Below are positions 1 to 51,148 of a stretch of 58,579 bases of DNA, one piece after another. Numbering within the stretch: the first letter of the stretch is position 1; each line of letters begins with the position of its first letter. Both the position numbers and the translations under genes were made by a program. The DNA lies in the IMG/VR virus record IMGVR_UViG_3300020034_000014, positions 1-58,579 of that record. The stretch is one strand, 5' to 3'. The stretch comes from a virus (Duplodnaviria > Caudoviricetes). The notes under the pieces are model-generated. The model had not been told where the DNA came from. It ran no database searches and was given only the letters and a program-made list of their open reading frames with translations.

Positions 1-12
1 CGCCTAATTACC
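1..12. repeat. 12-nt terminal direct repeat, left copy (probable cos end)
   Basis: CGCCTAATTACC at 1-12 is identical to 58568-58579; the junction lies just upstream of HNH-TerS-TerL. Confidence 0.8.
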
Positions 13-271
13 CGCGTTGATTTCGTTGCTCAAAAAGGACCCAAGAAAAAAAATAAAATAAAAAATTATTTTTTCCGTGATGTAATGCACACATTGATTT
101 ATTCATAGTATTAAATAAAAAATTTTAAATAAAAAAAAACTATAATAATAAATTAATTATGACACATACATATAGTGTAATGATAGCGATGAATACCCAT
201 ACTATCCTCACCATGATGCACACCCCTATGCGACACCATGACATTAGATGCTGTGTATATACACGCCTTCA

Positions 272-1021
272 TTATTTAAGCCTGCCTCCTGCACGCATGC
301 GCCTTTCGAGATTAGCCTTGAATTTGCGATCAAATATTTTTTGTGCTACCGGCCCCGGTTTAAAGCGCACTGAATAGTTTACACTGTTCACCGGCATAAG
401 CGCTGTGCGTATCGTGCTACCGAATCCCGAAGTAATGCGCTCATACACTACACCTGCTTTTAATTTCCCTCTGTTGACCGGCAACACAAAAAAGCTTCCA
501 CCACCGCCTTTCTTGCGTTGACGACGCAAACGACTGCCCCGCTTTTTTTCTGTTTCGTTTGCGGTAGGGTCAAACTGCACTGCCAGTTGTGACATTATTT
601 TAGTAATGAACTTTGCGGGTAAATTTCCATACGCATCTAGTGGCATGCTTCGGCCCGGTGTGAAAAATTTATTCCGTATGCGTGGATTCGCCTGCAATCT
701 TTTTTCAGGCGCTTTTTGCGCACGCCCGCCACCTTGCACATTGGGAAATAAATATTCGCTTGGTGGCACGCCTTTATTGACTTCTTTCCTGACAAACACT
801 TCTGCACTCAGTTTTCCCGGCGTAGCGGCTTTGAACAAAATGCTGTTTACCGTTAGTGGCCTTGGGCGGTCAAATACCCGGCGAAATTCATCCTTGAAGC
901 CATCGCGAATATCGAACGCGGTATCGTTGATCGATTTCACCATAATATTACTCAATTCTTTTTGCTCTATATCCTTGAAGCGTTTTATCAGGCGCGCAGC
1001 ATCAAAGGCAACCTTAAACAT
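272..1021 (-). CDS. Tail completion/neck protein (gpZ-like), located outside the main tail module
   Basis: SINDTAFDIR..FDRPRPLTVNSI pattern typical of this family; GGAGG upstream of ATG 1021 (ORF track start 1048). Confidence 0.6.
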   Translation of the reverse strand: MFKVAFDAARLIKRFKDIEQKELSNIMVKSINDTAFDIRDGFKDEFRRVFDRPRPLTVNSILFKAATPGKLSAEVFVRKEVNKGVPPSEYLFPNVQGGGRAQKAPEKRLQANPRIRNKFFTPGRSMPLDAYGNLPAKFITKIMSQLAVQFDPTANETEKKRGSRLRRQRKKGGGGSFFVLPVNRGKLKAGVVYERITSGFGSTIRTALMPVNSVNYSVRFKPGPVAQKIFDRKFKANLERRMRAGGRLK

Positions 1022-1316
1022 TTTTCCCTCCATTGGATTTTTCCACATGGGACAAAATCACGCCTTGCACCCATTGGGCGATATGTGAATATTCCGCGTG
1101 ATTATCAACGAACGAAAAAAAATTATTTTTCGCCAATCGGCCCGTGCCTACGTTGATCGATACCCAAAAATTTGATTTTGGCAAAGGGCGCAGGGAAATT
1201 ATTTTATAGTTTTTCCAGTGCCCCGTGCCGTGCCTTGCGTAGACACTCCATCCTGCAAGCGATCCGATGCACTCGGCGTTGTCGGGCACATTGCCCGCTA
1301 GAGTGTTTTTCTCCAA
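1014..1316 (-). CDS. Hypothetical protein
   Basis: 100-aa ORF overlapping the start of the downstream gene. Confidence 0.5.
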   Translation of the reverse strand: MEKNTLAGNVPDNAECIGSLAGWSVYARHGTGHWKNYKIISLRPLPKSNFWVSINVGTGRLAKNNFFSFVDNHAEYSHIAQWVQGVILSHVEKSNGGKNV

Positions 1317-1351
1317 TTCCTTCGCTTCACCATCACCGCTAGAATCTATCT

Positions 1352-1416
1352 GTTATCCGCCGAAGGCTACGCAGTCGCGCCTTAGTGCGGCGGTCAGCGT
1401 AGCCTTAACGGGATTA
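1352..1416. other. Long imperfect hairpin in a non-coding region
   Basis: AAGGCTACGC (1363-1372) pairs with GCGTAGCCTT (1397-1406). Confidence 0.6.
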
Positions 1417-1484
1417 AAAGTCAATAGGCTATTTTAAAATTGTTTGGAATCAATGAGTTATCATGCTTTTTATGACAAATGAAT

Positions 1485-1580
1485 CCATGTGATATTACGT
1501 GATACTACGTGATAAACCGTCAAAATAAAATTTAAGTAATTGATTTTACAGGGAAATTCTACATGATATGTATCACGTAG
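1485..1580. repeat. Iteron-like repeats (YTACGTGATA), candidate replication origin
   Basis: Three tandem 10-bp units at 1485-1514, an AT-rich spacer, then an inverted pair CTACATGATA/TATCACGTAG at 1559-1580; next to the primase-helicase. Confidence 0.6.
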
Positions 1581-1668
1581 AACGCTTTTTTCCACATAAA
1601 AACGGGTGAAATTTAGCATTTTTCTGCTTCGTGTATGATCGTGCGCCCATTAACGAAAAAGGCCTAAT

Positions 1669-1989
1669 ATGCTCAAGCCTGCAAAAATCCCGATAAGTAT
1701 TACCGTAGAAATTCGCATTTATTTAGATGACAAATGCATAAGACATAATGACCCCGACTCAAAATCTAGCGATCCTGAATTGACTTTATTGCGAGAGATC
1801 AAAAACGGAAAAGGCAATTTAACTGTAGCCAAACTAGCTAAAATTGCGAAACTGACACATATGCAAACGCGACTCAGACTTGCTAAATTTGCACAAAATA
1901 AATTAGTTGAACAGCTAGGCATCGGCTCAGGTAAAAGATACTACATTACAAAATTGGGCAAAATGCATCTAGAAAAACAAAACGCCTAG
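1669..1989 (+). CDS. Stand-alone winged-helix protein, paralog of the primase-helicase C-terminal domain
   Basis: Gap-free manual alignment gives 31/64 identities with the C-terminus of 1986..4052 (GKG, AKLTxMQTR, KRYxITKLG). Confidence 0.8.
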   Translation: MLKPAKIPISITVEIRIYLDDKCIRHNDPDSKSSDPELTLLREIKNGKGNLTVAKLAKIAKLTHMQTRLRLAKFAQNKLVEQLGIGSGKRYYITKLGKMHLEKQNA

Positions 1990-4052
1990 CAATCCCCGGC
2001 ATCGTCATTTGATTGCCGTTTTTCAGCGAATTTTGCTAATTGGGCACCACCCAATTTTGTGATGGTGTAGCGTTTCCATGCTCCCACGCCTTGCGCATCG
2101 ATTAACCCGACTTCGGCACATTTTTTAATTTCCACGCGCGTTTGCATAATCGTCAATTTTGCAGCTTCGGCCAATTCTAATAATGTCGCTTCACCCTTGC
2201 CCGCCTTTACCGCGAGCAATACCCGCTCCATGCGAGATTGATCCTCCAAGAGTTTTGCAGCCTCTTTTACGTTGCTTTCAATTTGCTGAATATCCGGCGC
2301 ATGCCTCAAAACACCGTGCGCGCCGACCTCGAAAAAAACATCCCCGGTATGCGGCCCATAATTATTTTTCACAAATCTTGCGACAACGTAGCGTCCGGCA
2401 TCATCTTCCGCCAATCCATATAAAGGCGCATCGCGTCTAGGGAGTCTGGTTAGCAACATCGATGCCCGCGCATTGTCTACCAGTGCCGAAGCCCCGCGCA
2501 CCACGCTTTGCGTCGCATCCTGTAGGCTCGTGACCTGCCCGCCTTTGCTCACATGATGCACCACGACAACCGCACATTTACACGTTGCCGCGATGCGATC
2601 CAGCGCCAGCATTAGCCGCGCCATTTCTTCGTTATCGTTTTCGCTGCCCCCGTTGAAAAATACCAGCGGATCGATTACAACTAATTTCATATCGTGCAAG
2701 GGTTTAATTTGTTCAATCAGGTAATCGACGCGATTTGTTTCCTGCAAATCACCGAATTCATCATGCGCCAGCATCCGCCAATCCAAGCCGCGCACTGATG
2801 CCACGCCCAAATGCTCTATGATCCTTTCGCGCTGTTTTTCGGTGTAGCCTTGCTGCTGTTGTATGGCATGTATGCGCCTATGGATATCATCTTTATCTTC
2901 CTCAGCAGTGAGTATCAGCGCCTTGCCCACTGTGCCCGGCTCAAATGGTCCCAGCGATTCACCGGCTGCAAAGGCTATGGCAAGTTGCAGCATTAAAAAA
3001 CTTTTGCTGCTACCGCCCGCGCCAGCGACTACCGTTACCTTACCGACTGCGATACGACCATCAAAAACCCACTCTAAAGGCACCGGCCCATGCTCATTAT
3101 TGAAGGCATACTCTGTGTCACCAATGACCCAAATACCTTGCGAAAATTCGCGCGTCAACGGCCTGTAGCCGCCTTTGCGCGCCAGCGCCATCACGCTGCG
3201 TATGGTCCAAAGCGCCCTATCCCGGTTGCGGTCAAATGTGTTCCACTTATTTAAATCATGCTCTTGGAATTTTTCACTCGACCTACTCCAATCTTCCCAA
3301 AGCGCAAAGCCCTTTTGTCCGTAGGCATGGCGCAACGCATGGCCTATATTGATCCATCGCGCATAGTCGCCTGCATCAATGTGCGCCAGCGCTTCGCGGA
3401 TTACTTCTACTTCAACCTTTGGAATTTTTGCCGTTCGTGGCGCGTCTTCGTCATCGCCCTCTATAACGCTAAACTCGCTACCCGGCCCCGTGTTGCTCAC
3501 ACTGCGCCCGCTCAAACTCTCAGGTAGTGGCACAATCTCTTGCTCCCAAGGCGCACAGTCTGCCCGCCATTGGTAGCGCCTGCCCGATTCATGCATGCTA
3601 GGCCATGCTACGACGAAGCCACGGCCCGCCTTTTTAACATCGATACCCTTGCCTAGCGTGCCGCCCGGCTCGCCTTCGTAGAATAGGTGTAGGCCACCGC
3701 CGCCGCTCTTTTGGATTACTGTTGTTGCTGCTTTGTCACCGGCCAATAATTTTCTAAGCGTGACTTCACCGCCATTACGCGGATCAATGTCAATCACGCA
3801 CGTTCCCGGCTTGGGCATGATGCCTATATGGGCATCCGGCCAACGCTGCCACCATACTACTAACTGCTTTTCGTTCGTGGTTGCTTTGTTTTGCCACGCC
3901 TTGATTAATGGGTGTTTGCCCGGCGTGTCGCATTGCACATCACCGCAGGCGCAACGCGCGGAACCATCACGCGCCTTGCGCAGCCACCAAACGGGCAAAA
4001 CGGGGAAACCCTCGCGGGCGTAGCGAAGCGCTGCGTCTTTTAAACTAGACAA
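1986..4052 (-). CDS. Bifunctional primase-polymerase / PriCT-2 / AAA helicase with C-terminal winged helix
   Basis: Prim-Pol motifs CACG..C..PGKHP, IDIDPRNGG, GGGLHLFY; PriCT-2 WINIGHAL..WEDWSR; P-loop GAGGSSKS; VVIDP, VHHVSK, RGASA. Confidence 0.92.
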   Translation of the reverse strand: MSSLKDAALRYAREGFPVLPVWWLRKARDGSARCACGDVQCDTPGKHPLIKAWQNKATTNEKQLVVWWQRWPDAHIGIMPKPGTCVIDIDPRNGGEVTLRKLLAGDKAATTVIQKSGGGGLHLFYEGEPGGTLGKGIDVKKAGRGFVVAWPSMHESGRRYQWRADCAPWEQEIVPLPESLSGRSVSNTGPGSEFSVIEGDDEDAPRTAKIPKVEVEVIREALAHIDAGDYARWINIGHALRHAYGQKGFALWEDWSRSSEKFQEHDLNKWNTFDRNRDRALWTIRSVMALARKGGYRPLTREFSQGIWVIGDTEYAFNNEHGPVPLEWVFDGRIAVGKVTVVAGAGGSSKSFLMLQLAIAFAAGESLGPFEPGTVGKALILTAEEDKDDIHRRIHAIQQQQGYTEKQRERIIEHLGVASVRGLDWRMLAHDEFGDLQETNRVDYLIEQIKPLHDMKLVVIDPLVFFNGGSENDNEEMARLMLALDRIAATCKCAVVVVHHVSKGGQVTSLQDATQSVVRGASALVDNARASMLLTRLPRRDAPLYGLAEDDAGRYVVARFVKNNYGPHTGDVFFEVGAHGVLRHAPDIQQIESNVKEAAKLLEDQSRMERVLLAVKAGKGEATLLELAEAAKLTIMQTRVEIKKCAEVGLIDAQGVGAWKRYTITKLGGAQLAKFAEKRQSNDDAGDC

Positions 4053-4207
4053 TATTTTTATTCCGGGCGCGGTTAATGGGCATCACGCACAAGCGTAGAC
4101 GTTGTGCGTAGCGCAAACTGTGCGAACGTTACGCCTTTGTGTGATGGCATTCAATACACTTTTGTAAAACTTGCAAGGCGTTGACTACACAACGAAAATC
4201 AAAACGC

Positions 4208-4236
4208 TTGAACGCCCGGCGCATGGGATATATAAT
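4208..4236 (+). promoter_or_regulatory. Sigma70-type promoter
   Basis: TTGAAC-17 nt-TATAAT. Confidence 0.65.
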
Positions 4237-4242
4237 GCGCTT

Positions 4243-4334
4243 GTCTCGCTGCTCCCCGTGGCGTTGACTGGCGCATCGTGTAGGACGCAAGGGCGGTAGA
4301 ATCCGGGCGCGGAGACTACCGCCCCTTGTTTTTT
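4243..4334 (+). ncRNA. Candidate ~90-nt small RNA
   Basis: Lies between the 4208-4236 promoter and an intrinsic terminator; no convincing ORF; start estimated from promoter spacing. Confidence 0.4.
4288..4334 (+). terminator. Intrinsic terminator
   Basis: CAAGGGCGGTAG/CTACCGCCCCTTG stem followed by T6. Confidence 0.7.
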
Positions 4335-4349
4335 CAGCACAAATAAAAC

Positions 4350-4378
4350 TTGCATTCGATTACTTGCGGGCGTATATT
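4350..4378 (+). promoter_or_regulatory. Promoter for the rightward early operon
   Basis: TTGCAT-17 nt-TATATT with GGCG before the -10, as in the other phage promoters. Confidence 0.55.
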
Positions 4379-4491
4379 TTCCGCTGCGCACTGGTAGGCG
4401 TCGCGTGCAGTCGCTTCCGTCCCCCGGATAGCGGCAGATACAACGCGCCTACTTTGTGCGCCCTCAAACGCAAGAGGAAACGGGGAACACC

Positions 4492-4812
4492 ATGCCATTT
4501 TTAGCACCAATGCCAAAGCGCAGAACGCCTATCACCGATAGGGTGTTGCTCGAAGCGCCACGCCATCAATTCGCGCCGCCCGGCGAACATTTTCTAATCA
4601 CACCAGCGCAAGCCTTGCTTGAGCAATGCAAAAAATTTGAATTACAAAATCAGGAATTATTAGCCGCGCTGAAACTTGCCGAAAAATTATGCAAAGAAGC
4701 GTTGCCTAAATTTAATTGGAGCGCATCGGCGCTAGACGCGAATGCAATCAGCCTATTGAATAATGTGCCTATCGCAATTAGCGCCGCGATCAAGAACGCG
4801 GAAAAACCATGA
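4492..4812 (+). CDS. Hypothetical protein
   Basis: ACGGGGAA RBS before ATG 4492; first of a run of overlapping ORFs. Confidence 0.7.
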   Translation: MPFLAPMPKRRTPITDRVLLEAPRHQFAPPGEHFLITPAQALLEQCKKFELQNQELLAALKLAEKLCKEALPKFNWSASALDANAISLLNNVPIAISAAIKNAEKP

Positions 4813-4991
4813 CCATCAAAAAATCAATATTGATTCAAGTTATCGTGATTGATCAAGCAACCAATTTGCAGATCACACGCGAAATACAAATTTATGATAG
4901 TGATATCGGATGGGAACTCGAAAGGCTTTTTACCCGGCTAGGCGAAAAATACGCAAAAGAAATCGATCCCGCTTTTGAAAGTAATTACTAG
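4809..4991 (+). CDS. Hypothetical protein
   Basis: ATGA overlap with the previous ORF. Confidence 0.6.
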   Translation: MTIKKSILIQVIVIDQATNLQITREIQIYDSDIGWELERLFTRLGEKYAKEIDPAFESNY

Positions 4992-4993
4992 CC

Positions 4994-5191
4994 ATGACCG
5001 CGCCACTCGGCACGCTCACCATGCCCAAACTTGACGGTATCGAAATCAAGCCCGGCGTTTGGATTATTGGCGAACCTACGCCCGTGCCCGGCACTGACAA
5101 ATTGCACGCACTCGCTGAAATCGAAGGCACGCTTTGTCTGGTTGAATTGGTATTAAAATTTCCCGTTGATGTGAAGCCCATACCATTATGA
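4994..5191 (+). CDS. Hypothetical protein
   Basis: Tightly packed operon ORF. Confidence 0.6.
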   Translation: MTAPLGTLTMPKLDGIEIKPGVWIIGEPTPVPGTDKLHALAEIEGTLCLVELVLKFPVDVKPIPL

Positions 5192-5370
5192 ATATCGCCG
5201 ATTTGATAATGGAATTACAAAAACACCCCGCTAACGCGGAAGTGTATGTCAGTGACGGTCCCGCACACGGCCAAAATATCGCGGATGAACGCGACCCGTT
5301 TATCATCAGAGACGATATCGAAATATGGGAAAACGATAAACTAAAAAAAGTTGAACGGGTGAAACTTTGA
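5188..5370 (+). CDS. Hypothetical protein
   Basis: 4-nt overlaps at both ends. Confidence 0.6.
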   Translation: MNIADLIMELQKHPANAEVYVSDGPAHGQNIADERDPFIIRDDIEIWENDKLKKVERVKL

Positions 5371-5693
5371 CCACCAAAGAAATATTTTTTATCGTCGCAT
5401 TTATTTTTGCGTGCGTAGTGTTTGTCTACTCATACATTACCGTAGGACGTGCAAGGCGTGCGGTAGCGAATGCGCAAAGGCTTGCGCGAGTCAACACCGG
5501 CAAAATGCATGCGATTGATGAAACGCTGGATATGTATATTGCTGAACTCGACACCATACGTAAAGCCGCCAAGGAATTATGTATCATCGTTATCAATGAC
5601 CGCGCCGCCGTTAAAGAAAAACAAAAACGCGCGAATGCATTAATGCTATTACTCAAAGATTCTTATCAACGCATCGCGGAGCATAGGCTATGA
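5367..5693 (+). CDS. Hypothetical membrane-anchored protein
   Basis: N-terminal hydrophobic helix IFFIVAFIFACVVFVYSYI. Confidence 0.65.
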   Translation: MTTKEIFFIVAFIFACVVFVYSYITVGRARRAVANAQRLARVNTGKMHAIDETLDMYIAELDTIRKAAKELCIIVINDRAAVKEKQKRANALMLLLKDSYQRIAEHRL

Positions 5694-6190
5694 CTGACGA
5701 AGGAAAAATTATTATCGGTATAGTCATTGCATTTGTGTGCGCTGGTATCGTTTTGTATTTTGAATTCTTCCGGCGAAAAATAAACCACATCACCGGCAAC
5801 ATACCGCCGAAGCGCAACCCGCCGCCATACGCAGCGTCGCAGCTAGGCGTATGGAAAGGACGGCACACATTTGATAGTGGCTACACAACTTGCGGATGTT
5901 TTCCAATGTGCCGCATCGATTGCCCCGACCGCGCAACGTGCATAATTGAGTCCGGCCCACTGCACTATGCGCGTCTACCATCACAACGCGCGAGTTTGAT
6001 GCCGCTGTTCAACGAAGCAAAATTACAACGCGAAGAACGCGCAGAAGAAAAGTTAAGCCGCGATCTGGCGCGCATGCTCAAAGAACACATAGACGAAAAC
6101 CCGCGCGATCACCGGGCGAAGGCGCAGTTTATCAATTTGCACAATGCTAGTGATGGTTGGGGGTCTTATCATGCTCGTAAAAGAATATGA
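5690..6190 (+). CDS. Hypothetical membrane-anchored protein with a Cys cluster
   Basis: N-terminal TM helix; CGCFPMCRIDC. Confidence 0.6.
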   Translation: MTDEGKIIIGIVIAFVCAGIVLYFEFFRRKINHITGNIPPKRNPPPYAASQLGVWKGRHTFDSGYTTCGCFPMCRIDCPDRATCIIESGPLHYARLPSQRASLMPLFNEAKLQREERAEEKLSRDLARMLKEHIDENPRDHRAKAQFINLHNASDGWGSYHARKRI

Positions 6191-11738: not shown

Positions 11739-11812
11739 GAGCCGGTAACTCAACTGGATAGAGTAGCGTATTTCTAATGCGCCTGTTGCAAGTTCAAATC
11801 TTGCCCGGCTTA
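11739..11812 (+). tRNA. tRNA-Arg(TCT)
   Basis: Full cloverleaf: acceptor GAGCCGG/CCGGCTT, D stem ACTC/GAGT with A20, anticodon stem GCGTA/TGCGC with loop TTTCTAA, T arm GCAAG-TTCAAAT-CTTGC; followed by CCT rather than CCA. Confidence 0.9.
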
Positions 11813-11820
11813 CCTCTCAC

Positions 11821-11860: not shown

Positions 11861-11905
11861 CGTGACAAAATGCACTATGCAAAGTTACGCGACGGCGTAT
11901 ATAAT
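11861..11905 (+). promoter_or_regulatory. Repeated promoter/operator module, copy A
   Basis: CGTGA-N6-GCACT, TACGC-GACG-GCGTA palindrome, TATAAT. Confidence 0.7.
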
Positions 11906-11962: not shown

Positions 11963-12005
11963 TGTGATAAATTACCGTTGACAAGGTTACGCGCTGGCGT
12001 ATACT
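11963..12005 (+). promoter_or_regulatory. Repeated promoter/operator module, copy B
   Basis: TGTGA, then TTGACA-16 nt-TATACT containing TACGC-GCTG-GCGTA. Confidence 0.8.
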
Positions 12006-12031
12006 CCCTACATCAACAACGGGGAACTAAC

Positions 12032-12574: not shown

Positions 12575-12617
12575 TGTGACTTAATGCACTAGACACAGTT
12601 ACGCGCTGGCGTATACT
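12575..12617 (+). promoter_or_regulatory. Repeated promoter/operator module, copy C
   Basis: TGTGA-N6-GCACT, TAGACA-16 nt-TATACT containing TACGC-GCTG-GCGTA. Confidence 0.8.
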
Positions 12618-20457: not shown

Positions 20458-20500
20458 TGTGACATATTACCGTTGACACGGTTACGCGACGGCGTATAAT
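20458..20500 (+). promoter_or_regulatory. Repeated promoter/operator module, copy D
   Basis: TGTGA, then TTGACA-16 nt-TATAAT containing TACGC-GACG-GCGTA. Confidence 0.85.
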
Positions 20501-22007: not shown

Positions 22008-22050
22008 TGTGATAAAAATCACTTGCATTATTTACGCACAGGCGTAAACT
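22008..22050 (+). promoter_or_regulatory. Repeated promoter/operator module, copy E
   Basis: TGTGA-N6-TCACT, TTGCAT-16 nt-TAAACT containing TACGC-ACAG-GCGTA. Confidence 0.75.
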
Positions 22051-50221: not shown

Positions 50222-51148
50222 TTACGCGGCCAGTAATAGAAAAACCGGATCACATCCTATTGTGAATTCGCAGGCCGCATTATATCTGACATATTTGCGT
50301 CTTGTTGGGTATGGAATAAACTGGTAAACGCGCGCCGTTTGAAGCGAACACGCGGCCTCACCACCGAAGCGTAGCCCGCCCGATGCAACGTAGACATACT
50401 CGCGCGCCCGCGTAGGCGGGATAGGTTTGTAGCGGTCAAGTGTCGGGAAACTGCCGCGATGCTCAAACACTGTGCCCGCACCGTGCCCAATGCCGCCCGT
50501 GACACTCGCGCGCCGGTAAGACGTGACCGCAACGCCACCGAAGACAACACCGCCCGCTGCAATGTAGTTATAAGGCGTTTTACTGGTAAGCGCCGCACCG
50601 CCGAAGTGAAGCCCGCCCGATGCCGCGTAAGTATCCGACTCAACAACATCAGCCGCACCACCAAATCGCGCGCCACCTGTTGCGACGTAGATATACTCAT
50701 TTTCTTCTGAGCCTGCTTCATACTCGGTATCAGCCTCGCCGCCTAAACGAATCCCGCCCGTTGCTTCGTAAGAATCTGATTCAGTTACATTTGCATCACC
50801 TGTAAAAACAATACCGCCTGTTGCAACATGAACAGCCACGCGCACAACATCAGCAACACCGCCAAAAAGTAAGCCACCTGTTGCCTCGTATGAATCGGAT
50901 TCAATTACATCCGCTGCGCCGCCGAATATCGCGCCGCCCGTTGCAAGATAATTGATTGTGCGCGCGATGCCCGCCGCGCCGCCTAGTGTTGCCCCGCCCG
51001 TTGCTTCGTATGAGTCAGATTCAATTACATCAGCGACACCACCATAAATCAGCCCGCCGAATGCAATGTATTCATAAACGGTAAAACTAGGCGGCGCGTC
51101 TTCGTCACCAGCAATCGGAAAATCAGATAGTGGTGAATTTCCGAACAT
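50222..51148 (-). CDS. Repeat-containing structural protein (about ten 20-aa units)
   Basis: Units like YEATGGxxFGGxADVxESDS. Confidence 0.7.
   Translation of the reverse strand: MFGNSPLSDFPIAGDEDAPPSFTVYEYIAFGGLIYGGVADVIESDSYEATGGATLGGAAGIARTINYLATGGAIFGGAADVIESDSYEATGGLLFGGVADVVRVAVHVATGGIVFTGDANVTESDSYEATGGIRLGGEADTEYEAGSEENEYIYVATGGARFGGAADVVESDTYAASGGLHFGGAALTSKTPYNYIAAGGVVFGGVAVTSYRRASVTGGIGHGAGTVFEHRGSFPTLDRYKPIPPTRAREYVYVASGGLRFGGEAACSLQTARVYQFIPYPTRRKYVRYNAACEFTIGCDPVFLLLAA

Follow-up and report, generated by a model that had tools for sequence, protein, structure and literature searches.

Background

Why should a phage encode, beside its primase-helicase, a second and free copy of the domain with which that enzyme probably reads DNA? 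The question arises from the window analyzed here, the whole of IMG/VR virus record IMGVR_UViG_3300020034_000014 (58,579 bp; classed as linear, with 84% completeness), in which a primase-helicase gene (1986 to 4052, minus strand, 688 amino acids) and a small gene (1669 to 1989, plus strand, 106 amino acids) converge tail-to-tail. An earlier note on this DNA had proposed that the product of the small gene duplicates the winged helix of its neighbor; it set the end of the feature at 2240, which takes in the primase's copy of the domain, and the full parent gene extends to 4052.

Our main finding is that the small open reading frame (ORF) is, by sequence comparison, a true paralogue of the primase-helicase C-terminal domain. 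The copy appears old and maintained, it is preceded by a cluster of repeats, and comparable gene pairs recur at the primase loci of other phages. We describe these observations in turn, and then weigh what the free domain may do.

Results and discussion

A domain-precise copy of the primase-helicase C-terminus

A BLASTP comparison of the small ORF with the primase gives one ungapped match, between residues 40 to 103 of the former and 611 to 674 of the latter, with 31 of 64 positions identical (48%), 43 of 64 positive and an E value of 4e-16. This is the same count as had been made by hand in the earlier note, including the blocks AKLT-MQTR and KRY-ITKLG. A six-frame search of the whole record found two copies only of the domain, and the copying was domain-precise: a single identity is found between the 39 N-terminal residues of the small protein and the aligned primase linker. 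At the DNA level, the two coding arms (1786 to 1977 for the small gene, and 2031 to 2222, minus strand, for the parent) make up an inverted repeat, centered near 2004, whose arms are 53 nt apart. They are 58% identical overall, and blastn still detects two collinear segments, one of 45 nt at 73% identity (E 4e-4) and one of 27 nt at 81% (E 1e-3).

The two genes end on TAG stops that share one CTAG (1986 to 1989), as had been noticed before and as both the sequence and the ORF coordinates bear out: the TAG at 1987 to 1989 closes the small ORF, and the complement of 1986 to 1988 closes the primase. The arm geometry fits the inverted duplication that had been proposed, or the inversion of an older tandem copy. 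The convergent layout may thus have arisen by inverted duplication in situ, or by inversion of a unit made of the repeats plus the small gene, starting from the commoner tandem layout.

Apart from the domains of its parent and of the nearest orthologue, P0004 (see below), the small ORF has no relative in the searches made. A word-indexed search of 5.8 billion proteins returned only the ORF itself, tblastn against 50,697 phage records returned nothing, and an exhaustive search with HMMER, through 1.84 billion representatives, brought up the ORF and one other protein, P0003 (E 8e-11). The latter, a protein of 934 amino acids with 13 near-identical repeats of 57 residues, was judged to be a spurious summed match, and illustrates how repeats can make a false match in an exhaustive search.

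When the small ORF was compared with the C-termini of 19 primases, its own primase and the closest orthologue, P0004, each gave 42% identity (31/73), and the other 17 gave 12 to 24%. A maximum-likelihood tree unites the small ORF, its own primase and P0004 with supports of 99/98, and within this trio joins the small ORF to its own primase with supports of 95/81. This is the direction predicted in the earlier note, which had asked whether the small domain is closer to its own primase than to the copies of other phages; the approximately unbiased (AU) test, for its part, retains the alternatives within the trio (p 0.153). Because the trio is well supported while the AU test keeps alternatives inside it, the duplication can be assigned, on the tree, to the sub-lineage of the own primase and P0004, and may have come before or after the split from P0004.

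The parent is a Prim-Pol primase fused to a RepA-type helicase

Three domains of the primase-helicase score above their Pfam thresholds, in fusion order: a Prim-Pol domain (residues 8 to 178; PF09250, 116 bits, E 2.6e-33), a PriCT_2 domain (residues 218 to 291; PF08707, 47.6 bits) and a RepA/AAA_25 helicase (residues 321 to 586; PF13481 over 321 to 506, 137 bits, E 8e-40). The helicase core (residues 322 to 586) also matches the RSF1010 RepA structure (PDB 1g8y, E 4e-23). The C-terminal winged helix-turn-helix (wHTH) domain that matches the small ORF follows at about residues 605 to 674, and a short acidic tail (residues 675 to 688; 1989 to 2030 of the window) ends the protein. The small ORF has no such tail. 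The enzyme had been described beforehand as a P4 alpha-type primase-helicase with a C-terminal winged helix. The winged helix stands and the type does not: since the primase is of the archaeo-eukaryotic Prim-Pol kind, the helicase is of the RepA/AAA_25 kind, and the P4/D5 superfamily 3 families PF08706, PF19263 and PF03288 are absent from the Pfam matches of the protein, its domain content identifies it as a fusion of Prim-Pol, PriCT_2 and RepA-type helicase.

Eighteen metagenome orthologues (42 to 65% identity) have the same domains, and several carry precomputed HTH_24, MarR_2, MarR or TrmB matches on their C-termini. Their catalytic domains are well conserved; their last 90 to 100 residues are very variable, and mostly have an acidic tail at the end. 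Such variability of the C-terminus is as expected for a domain that would determine DNA specificity. When primase residues 560 to 688 alone were put through the word-indexed search, they retrieved nothing but themselves, and no cultured phage record covers 80% of the primase. The tails of most orthologues (among P0004 to P0022) close with an aspartate and then hydrophobic residues (DLI, DLM, DIL, DLF). The acidic tail is presumably similar to those by which gp4 and gp2.5 of T7 bind the polymerase, and may contact the polymerase; this phage encodes a family-A polymerase and a Gp2.5-like single-stranded DNA-binding protein.

The copied domain is predicted to fold as a winged helix

The small protein (pI 10.0) consists of 35 N-terminal residues followed by a wHTH domain (residues 36 to 105, encoded at 1774 to 1983 on the plus strand), with helices H1, H2 and H3, a beta-hairpin wing (residues 80 to 93) and helix H4; the recognition helix H3 covers residues 64 to 76 (HMQTRLRLAKFAQ). 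AlphaFold2, run on residues 34 to 106 with an alignment of 20 sequences, 19 of them primases, gave a mean predicted local distance difference test score (pLDDT) of 93.1 and a predicted template modeling score of 0.78, with helices at 3-14, 20-26 and 31-43, strands at 47-50 and 57-60, and a last helix at 62-72 (numbered within the fragment). Modeled at full length with a three-sequence alignment, the protein has an overall pLDDT of 58.7, and of less than 50 for residues 1 to 32.

Foldseek relates the domain model, with a probability of 1.00, to many wHTH structures, the nearest solved ones being MarR-family regulators and small DNA-binding proteins with a winged helix, namely AspA, Sso10a, TubR and AF1382 (template modeling scores of 0.77 to 0.82). 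The nearest viral models are small uncharacterized winged-helix proteins, and a language-model atlas agrees. Structure prediction thus bears out the proposal that the copied domain is a winged helix. The match to Pfam MarR_2 scores 13.9 bits (E 0.062), far below the gathering cut-off of 27, and for this reason we take the result as an assignment of fold, not of membership of the MarR family; a search of the PDB by sequence with the small ORF gave nothing below an E value of 0.5.

The free domain is more basic than that of the primase (pI 10.7 versus 9.5). Over the turn and recognition helix, the small protein (AKLTHMQTRLRLAKFAQ) is identical to its own primase (AKLTIMQTRVEIKKCAE) at 10 of 17 positions, versus 5 of 17 for P0004; over the other segments (H1, the wing and H4), it resembles P0004 at least as much as its own primase. 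This is what a shared DNA specificity would look like, over few positions, and is suggestive only.

The duplicate is old and very probably maintained

Four methods comparing the small ORF with the parent domain gave dS (synonymous divergence) values of 0.88 to 1.85 and ratios of nonsynonymous to synonymous divergence (dN/dS) of 0.26 to 0.62, estimates for which 64 codons, close to saturation, were available. Identity at third codon positions is 50%, and the same codon is used at 14 of the 31 identical residues, versus 11.7 expected from independent codon choice. With a stop frequency of 0.068 per codon, that is, one stop expected every 15 codons, a frame of this base composition would stay open for 106 codons with a probability of about 6e-4 per frame. 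The ATG at 1669 is preceded, 7 nt upstream, by what reads as a Shine-Dalgarno-like AAAAAGG (1655 to 1661). The G+C content of the ORF is 37%, versus 53% in the parent, which makes it the fifth lowest of 85 ORFs, within the range of the phage's small genes.

Because synonymous sites are near saturation and yet 48% of the residues are kept, because the long open frame is improbable and has an ATG with a plausible ribosome binding site, and because the copy is domain-precise, we are highly confident that the ORF is an old duplicate maintained as a gene. The stretch is covered by contigs of three soil-metagenome DNA runs from two studies, with zero differences among them, so that they are uninformative on selection within the population.

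A repeat cluster precedes the small gene

Upstream of the small gene, and downstream of the primase gene, a repeat search revealed three copies of a direct repeat, spaced at a 10-bp period (CATGTGATAT, TACGTGATAC and TACGTGATAA; 1486 to 1515, plus strand). They are followed by an A+T-rich spacer of 41 bp (1516 to 1556), a possible unwinding element, and then by a palindrome, TTCTACATGATA-TG-TATCACGTAGAA (1557 to 1582), which is made of two inverted repeat units, with 12-nt arms that are 92% complementary and 2 nt apart. The whole cluster lies 87 to 183 bp upstream of the small gene's ATG; the palindrome, at 87 bp, is a candidate operator or initiator site.

The word ACGTGATA occurs seven times in the genome, versus 1.7 expected, and three of these seven occurrences are in the cluster. 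Similarly, 4 of the 18 genome matches to TACGTGATA with at most one mismatch fall within 84 bp (1496 to 1579), and form no other cluster. Features of an iteron origin are therefore present, namely phased copies of one word, inverted copies and an A+T-rich stretch, in an arrangement unique in the genome, and we regard the region from 1486 to 1582 as a putative replication origin or cis-required replication region.

Similar gene pairs at other primase loci

The primase alignment served to fetch loci (the best 80 of each scan), and the last 130 residues of each primase were compared with the other ORFs of the same locus (phmmer, E<1e-3). Viral and metagenome loci provided 125 complete primase ORFs, 111 of them with at least 400 bp downstream, and gave 10 loci with a match, versus 1/125 in a mismatched-locus control. 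Bacterial-genome loci (53 complete primase ORFs, 51 with at least 400 bp downstream) gave none, as did their control (0/53). In three cultured phages (Serratia BUCT805, Pseudoalteromonas H40/1 and Shigella Sf11), BLAST at E<1 found no C-terminal paralogue.

Six of the 111 phage and metagenome loci have strong matches, of 38 to 67 bits. In all six the stand-alone copy of the primase C-terminus is on the same strand as the primase: L037 (10034-10711), L045 (7595-8020), L050 (4838-5350), L022 (7429-7998), L140 (2799-3170) and L029 (2445-2753). Two further loci, L076 and L155, have weak matches (14 to 18 bits), and those of L036 and L032 were rejected as spurious (13 bits, in an Arg/Cys-rich ORF that looks antisense). 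Among the strong cases are two helicase classes, AAA_25 and DUF3987, and at least four sequence groups without mutual matches. The distance from the primase to the small gene downstream is 139 to 495 bp in five loci and about 3 kb in L037; the spacer before it has direct and inverted repeats in all five strong loci inspected. The small proteins of L037, L045 and L050 are 34 to 45% identical to one another, and are for that reason conserved, long-retained genes. In the L037 protein the domain is present twice. The phage collection contained no match to two of the small paralogues of other loci.

Counting the window, L037/L045/L050, L022, L140 and L029, there would be at least four or five instances unrelated in sequence. 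We tentatively suggest, as a possibility that we hold less likely than its converse, that the Prim-Pol primase-helicases of phages repeatedly shed a free wHTH copy beside repeat-rich DNA, forming a two-part replication module that has escaped description, in which copy and enzyme would read the same iterons and the copy would act as an origin-occupancy switch, serving to time origin firing, to control copy number, or to exclude co-infecting relatives or satellites. In the window, such a switch would be further wired by convergent transcription with overlapping stops.

In the Pseudoalteromonas phage H40/1 (L170, 7368-7607), a 79-residue protein annotated as a 'putative transcriptional regulator' is encoded tail-to-tail with the primase/polymerase gene, 34 bp after it. 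The layout is that of the window, and the regulator has no BLAST similarity to the C-terminus of that primase.

What the free domain may do

The reading that we prefer, to which we give about even chances, is that the free wHTH reads the same repeats as its parent enzyme and thereby controls the loading of the primase-helicase as well as its own promoter. The origin-recognition wHTH of the phage's own Prim-Pol/RepA-type enzyme would have been duplicated to give a basic protein of 106 residues, devoid of catalytic domains and of the acidic tail. This protein would most likely recognize the same DNA word as the C-terminus of the enzyme, that is, the TACGTGATA-type repeats at 1486 to 1582, which it would occupy, probably as a dimer on the palindrome. 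Occupancy of the repeats would then set how and when the primase-helicase loads, as a negative or a timing control. Since the repeats are directly upstream of its start, the small gene would also be autoregulated, and convergent transcription with no convincing terminator between the genes would lead to mutual interference.

Several observations weigh against this reading. The generic 9-mer repeat score of the region (1269 to 1668) is unexceptional, 24 of 145 genome tiles scoring as high (top 17%), and no sigma-70-like promoter was found upstream of the small gene on the plus strand in a consensus scan. The small ORF is equally similar overall to the domains of its own primase and of P0004, the AU test leaves the alternatives within the trio, the dN/dS ratio is based on few, nearly saturated codons, and the metagenome runs contain no variant. 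Nor are other loci unanimous. Repeat-rich DNA is general after primase genes (median of 72 covered bases versus 15 in shuffles), and is equally common with or without a paralogue (p 0.20); as for L037, L045 and L050, the nearest relative of a small protein is not always the primase of its own locus. The close orthologue L083 (51% identity), which is the only full-length close one among the matches listed, has no such small gene in its flank. Two other close loci among these matches, L084 and L086, end at the contig end, and IMG/VR scans with the primase, P0004 and P0017 found no close locus. Finally, the partner gene is absent from 105 of the 111 distant phage loci and from all 51 bacterial-genome loci; judged by these absences, and that in L083, the partner is dispensable for this class of enzyme.

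The main rival, which we consider unlikely though deserving of attention, is that the small protein is an ordinary phage transcription factor with no continuing link to replication, acting mainly on five promoter modules of the early/middle region and perhaps on its own promoter. These conserved, sigma-70-like modules (11862-11901, 11964-12003, 12576-12615, 20459-20498 and 22009-22048, all on the plus strand) consist, in order, of an upstream element AGTGTGAYA..TTAC, TTGACA, a conserved 17-nt spacer GTTACGCGmnGGCG, and TATAmT. All five carry GTGTGAYA...TTAC (AACGTGACA in one of them) just upstream of the TTGACA -35 box, and this element has a GTGAYA core and TTAC in common with the 10-bp unit GTGATAyTAC at 1488 to 1515. 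Furthermore, YGTGAYA occurs 40 times genome-wide versus 24 +/- 4.7 in shuffles, none of 100 of which reaches 40; four occurrences are in the modules and four at 1488 to 1577. Viral wHTH proteins of 90 to 120 residues are common, and a weak match (E 0.006) links the small protein to PHROG 2440, a 'transcriptional regulator'. However, the common core is just 6 to 7 nt long, its spacing to TTAC is off by 2 nt, and the module at 12576 reads GTGTGACT. Nor is there enrichment of the full 15-nt module element, whose 6 matches are reached by 36 of 100 shuffles. A mere transcription factor also leaves unexplained why, in six other phages, free copies lie beside the primase gene and a repeat-rich spacer.

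The same anatomy (paralogy, repeat cluster and likeness of the recognition helices) would suit a positive accessory factor as well as a competitor, that is, a protein that marks the repeats of the origin, or bends them, and assists the primase-helicase in loading, or a gene that activates the origin by its own transcription, which would begin beside the repeats. There is background for both variants: phage lambda requires transcription near its origin, and Cnr of phage P4 stimulates the DNA binding of alpha. Most relatives of the enzyme nevertheless do without a partner (the 105/111 and 51/51 loci above), and the free copy retains no portion of the enzyme beyond the wHTH through which the enzyme could be recruited, so that we hold this explanation to be improbable.

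Still less credit can be given to the idea that an inverted duplication of the primase 3' end left the ORF behind as a relic without function, its frame open by chance. This would account for the fact that two very large searches of proteins brought up no homologue but the parent domain, for the promoterless consensus scan, for the low G+C content compared with the parent and for the absence of the gene from L083; moreover, there is no RNA run among the sequencing runs listed for the stretch. On the other side, a relic would not be expected to keep nearly half of its residues and the fold-defining pattern while synonymous sites approach saturation, nor to retain an open frame of such low probability (P 6e-4) with an ATG and AAAAAGG; its G+C content is not aberrant among the small genes of this phage, and analogous copies are conserved among three other phages.

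Lastly, it is very improbable that the free domain is directed at a protein, pairing with the wHTH of the primase-helicase and poisoning or capping the DNA-recognition ring of the hexamer, or that it is a conflict factor blocking the origin of co-infecting relatives or satellites with the same initiator: a domain 48% identical to its parent could use the same interfaces, and ICP1 Odn is described as a copy of an initiator DNA-binding domain used in phage-parasite conflict (PMC8263062), but the protein has no nuclease or other effector domain, and a conflict factor would strike the phage's own origin too.

Comparison with known systems

It had been stated that no equivalent of this arrangement was described. 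For gene-level paralogues this holds in the open-access literature searched, where we found no description of a stand-alone paralogue of a primase-helicase winged helix; it does not hold for function, for which the RepR/RepR' pair of plasmid pIGRK (PMC6854812) and the Odn/RepA pair of ICP1 and PLE (PMC8263062) are precedents.

In pIGRK, the truncated initiator RepR' is described as binding origin and operator DNA, antagonizing full-length RepR, and helping autoregulation by co-repressing the promoter (PMC6854812). As in the window, where the wHTH is 48% identical to that of the enzyme, a short protein carries the initiator's DNA-binding domain. RepR', however, is N-terminally truncated, is made from an internal start in the same gene and is identical in sequence to the initiator, whereas the window has a separate, convergent and 48%-identical paralogue, in a phage. 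In the second precedent, the origin-binding domain of an initiator has likewise been copied in another protein: the DNA-binding domain of Odn is reported to be 42% identical to PLE RepA and to need the same iterons (PMC8263062). Odn differs, according to the same text, in that it is fused to a nuclease, is encoded on another element than the initiator and destroys the origin, and in that its domain is of the RepA_N type, not a C-terminal wHTH.

Two replication systems have a comparable domain plan. The P4 alpha protein is described as comprising a DnaG-type primase, a superfamily 3 helicase and a C-terminal winged helix (PMC2777425), and the cnr gene of P4 as a small neighboring gene that controls copy number, among the ORFs between epsilon and alpha (PMC8628076). 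The crr repeats, required in cis, are annotated just after alpha. The likeness to the window thus extends to the order of primase, helicase and winged helix, to repeats downstream of the gene and to a small gene nearby, which in P4 is a control gene. When compared with alpha, ORF106 and ORF151, which lie between epsilon and alpha, gave E values of 14 and 2.5, that is, no similarity; cnr, presumably ORF106, lies among them, and the P4 control gene is therefore not a paralogue of the initiator's winged helix. The small ORF of the window has no real match either to alpha (E 0.9) or to ORF106 (E 0.027 over 23 N-terminal residues), and these comparisons indicate that the pair is not a P4-type system by descent.

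The ORF904 protein of pRN1 has a Prim-Pol domain, a superfamily 3 helicase and, at its C-terminus, a winged helix for which a role in locating the origin is proposed (PMC2777425), and an essential non-coding region is described downstream of orf904 (PMC4234260; PMC2777425). The succession of domains and the downstream cis region recall the window; the helicase is of superfamily 3 and not of the RepA type, and the partners ORF56 and ORF80 are not reported as winged-helix paralogues in the available text of these papers. More distant comparisons concern single parts of the pair. RSF1010 RepA (PDB 1g8y) shares the helicase core, but is a stand-alone helicase with neither primase nor wHTH. The RSF1010 origin is recognized by a separate protein. 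MarR/HTH_24-type regulators resemble the small protein in the fold and size of the DNA-binding core, and differ from it in having long N- and C-terminal dimerization helices, which are not evident in the small protein, and in that the latter descends from a replicase domain.

Genome setting

Contigs of the record were found in soil-metagenome runs, which makes it a soil phage, and PHROG scans give a siphovirus-like layout. The minus strand from 58.5 to 26.7 kb carries terminase, portal, head, tail and lysis genes, and the plus strand from 4.5 to 26.5 kb carries genes for an exonuclease, a Gp2.5-like single-stranded DNA-binding protein, a family-A DNA polymerase, a helicase and methyltransferases. 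The primase-helicase gene reads leftward out of a divergent control region (4053 to 4455). Positions 1 to 6000 gave no match with blastn, and neither Rfam families nor tRNA genes were found in 1 to 4600. A candidate terminator of the primase transcript (1680 to 1660, minus strand, -9.4 kcal/mol) was rejected, being no better than shuffles (z -0.48).

Elsewhere in the window, the sole tRNA gene, a tRNA-Arg(TCT) at 11739 to 11814, lies just upstream of two of the promoter modules. A 20-nt translation-start module, ACGGGGAACTAAAATGAA, is present in seven copies (at 12017, 12974, 20210, 20520, 20704, 20931 and 23548), two of which are identical. About ten repeats with a 60-nt period (50346 to 51070) lie within a minus-strand ORF of 308 amino acids (50222 to 51148) that has no PHROG match and probably encodes a repeat protein of the head or structural block. 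At the left end, a homologue of PHROG 1924 ('minor tail protein'; 272 to 1048) and an ORF of 100 amino acids (1014 to 1316), both on the minus strand, are located away from the tail block; a circular map would put them upstream of the small terminase gene.

Conclusions

The window encodes a separate, diverged copy of the reader domain of an initiator, one of several independent instances in uncultured phages. The choice of origin and the timing of replication are almost unstudied in many phages with Prim-Pol-type primase-helicases, and a free, maintained copy of the reader domain beside a unique repeat cluster could both locate the origin and reveal a principle of control. If the free domain only regulates transcription, it is a small regulator of the ordinary kind whose pedigree is unusual. 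The logic of a duplicated reader is already known from the in-frame short Rep proteins of plasmids and from DNA-binding mimicry in the conflict between ICP1 and PLE; similar pairs in other phage lineages suggest that duplicating the reader domain of an initiator may be a general route to regulating that initiator.

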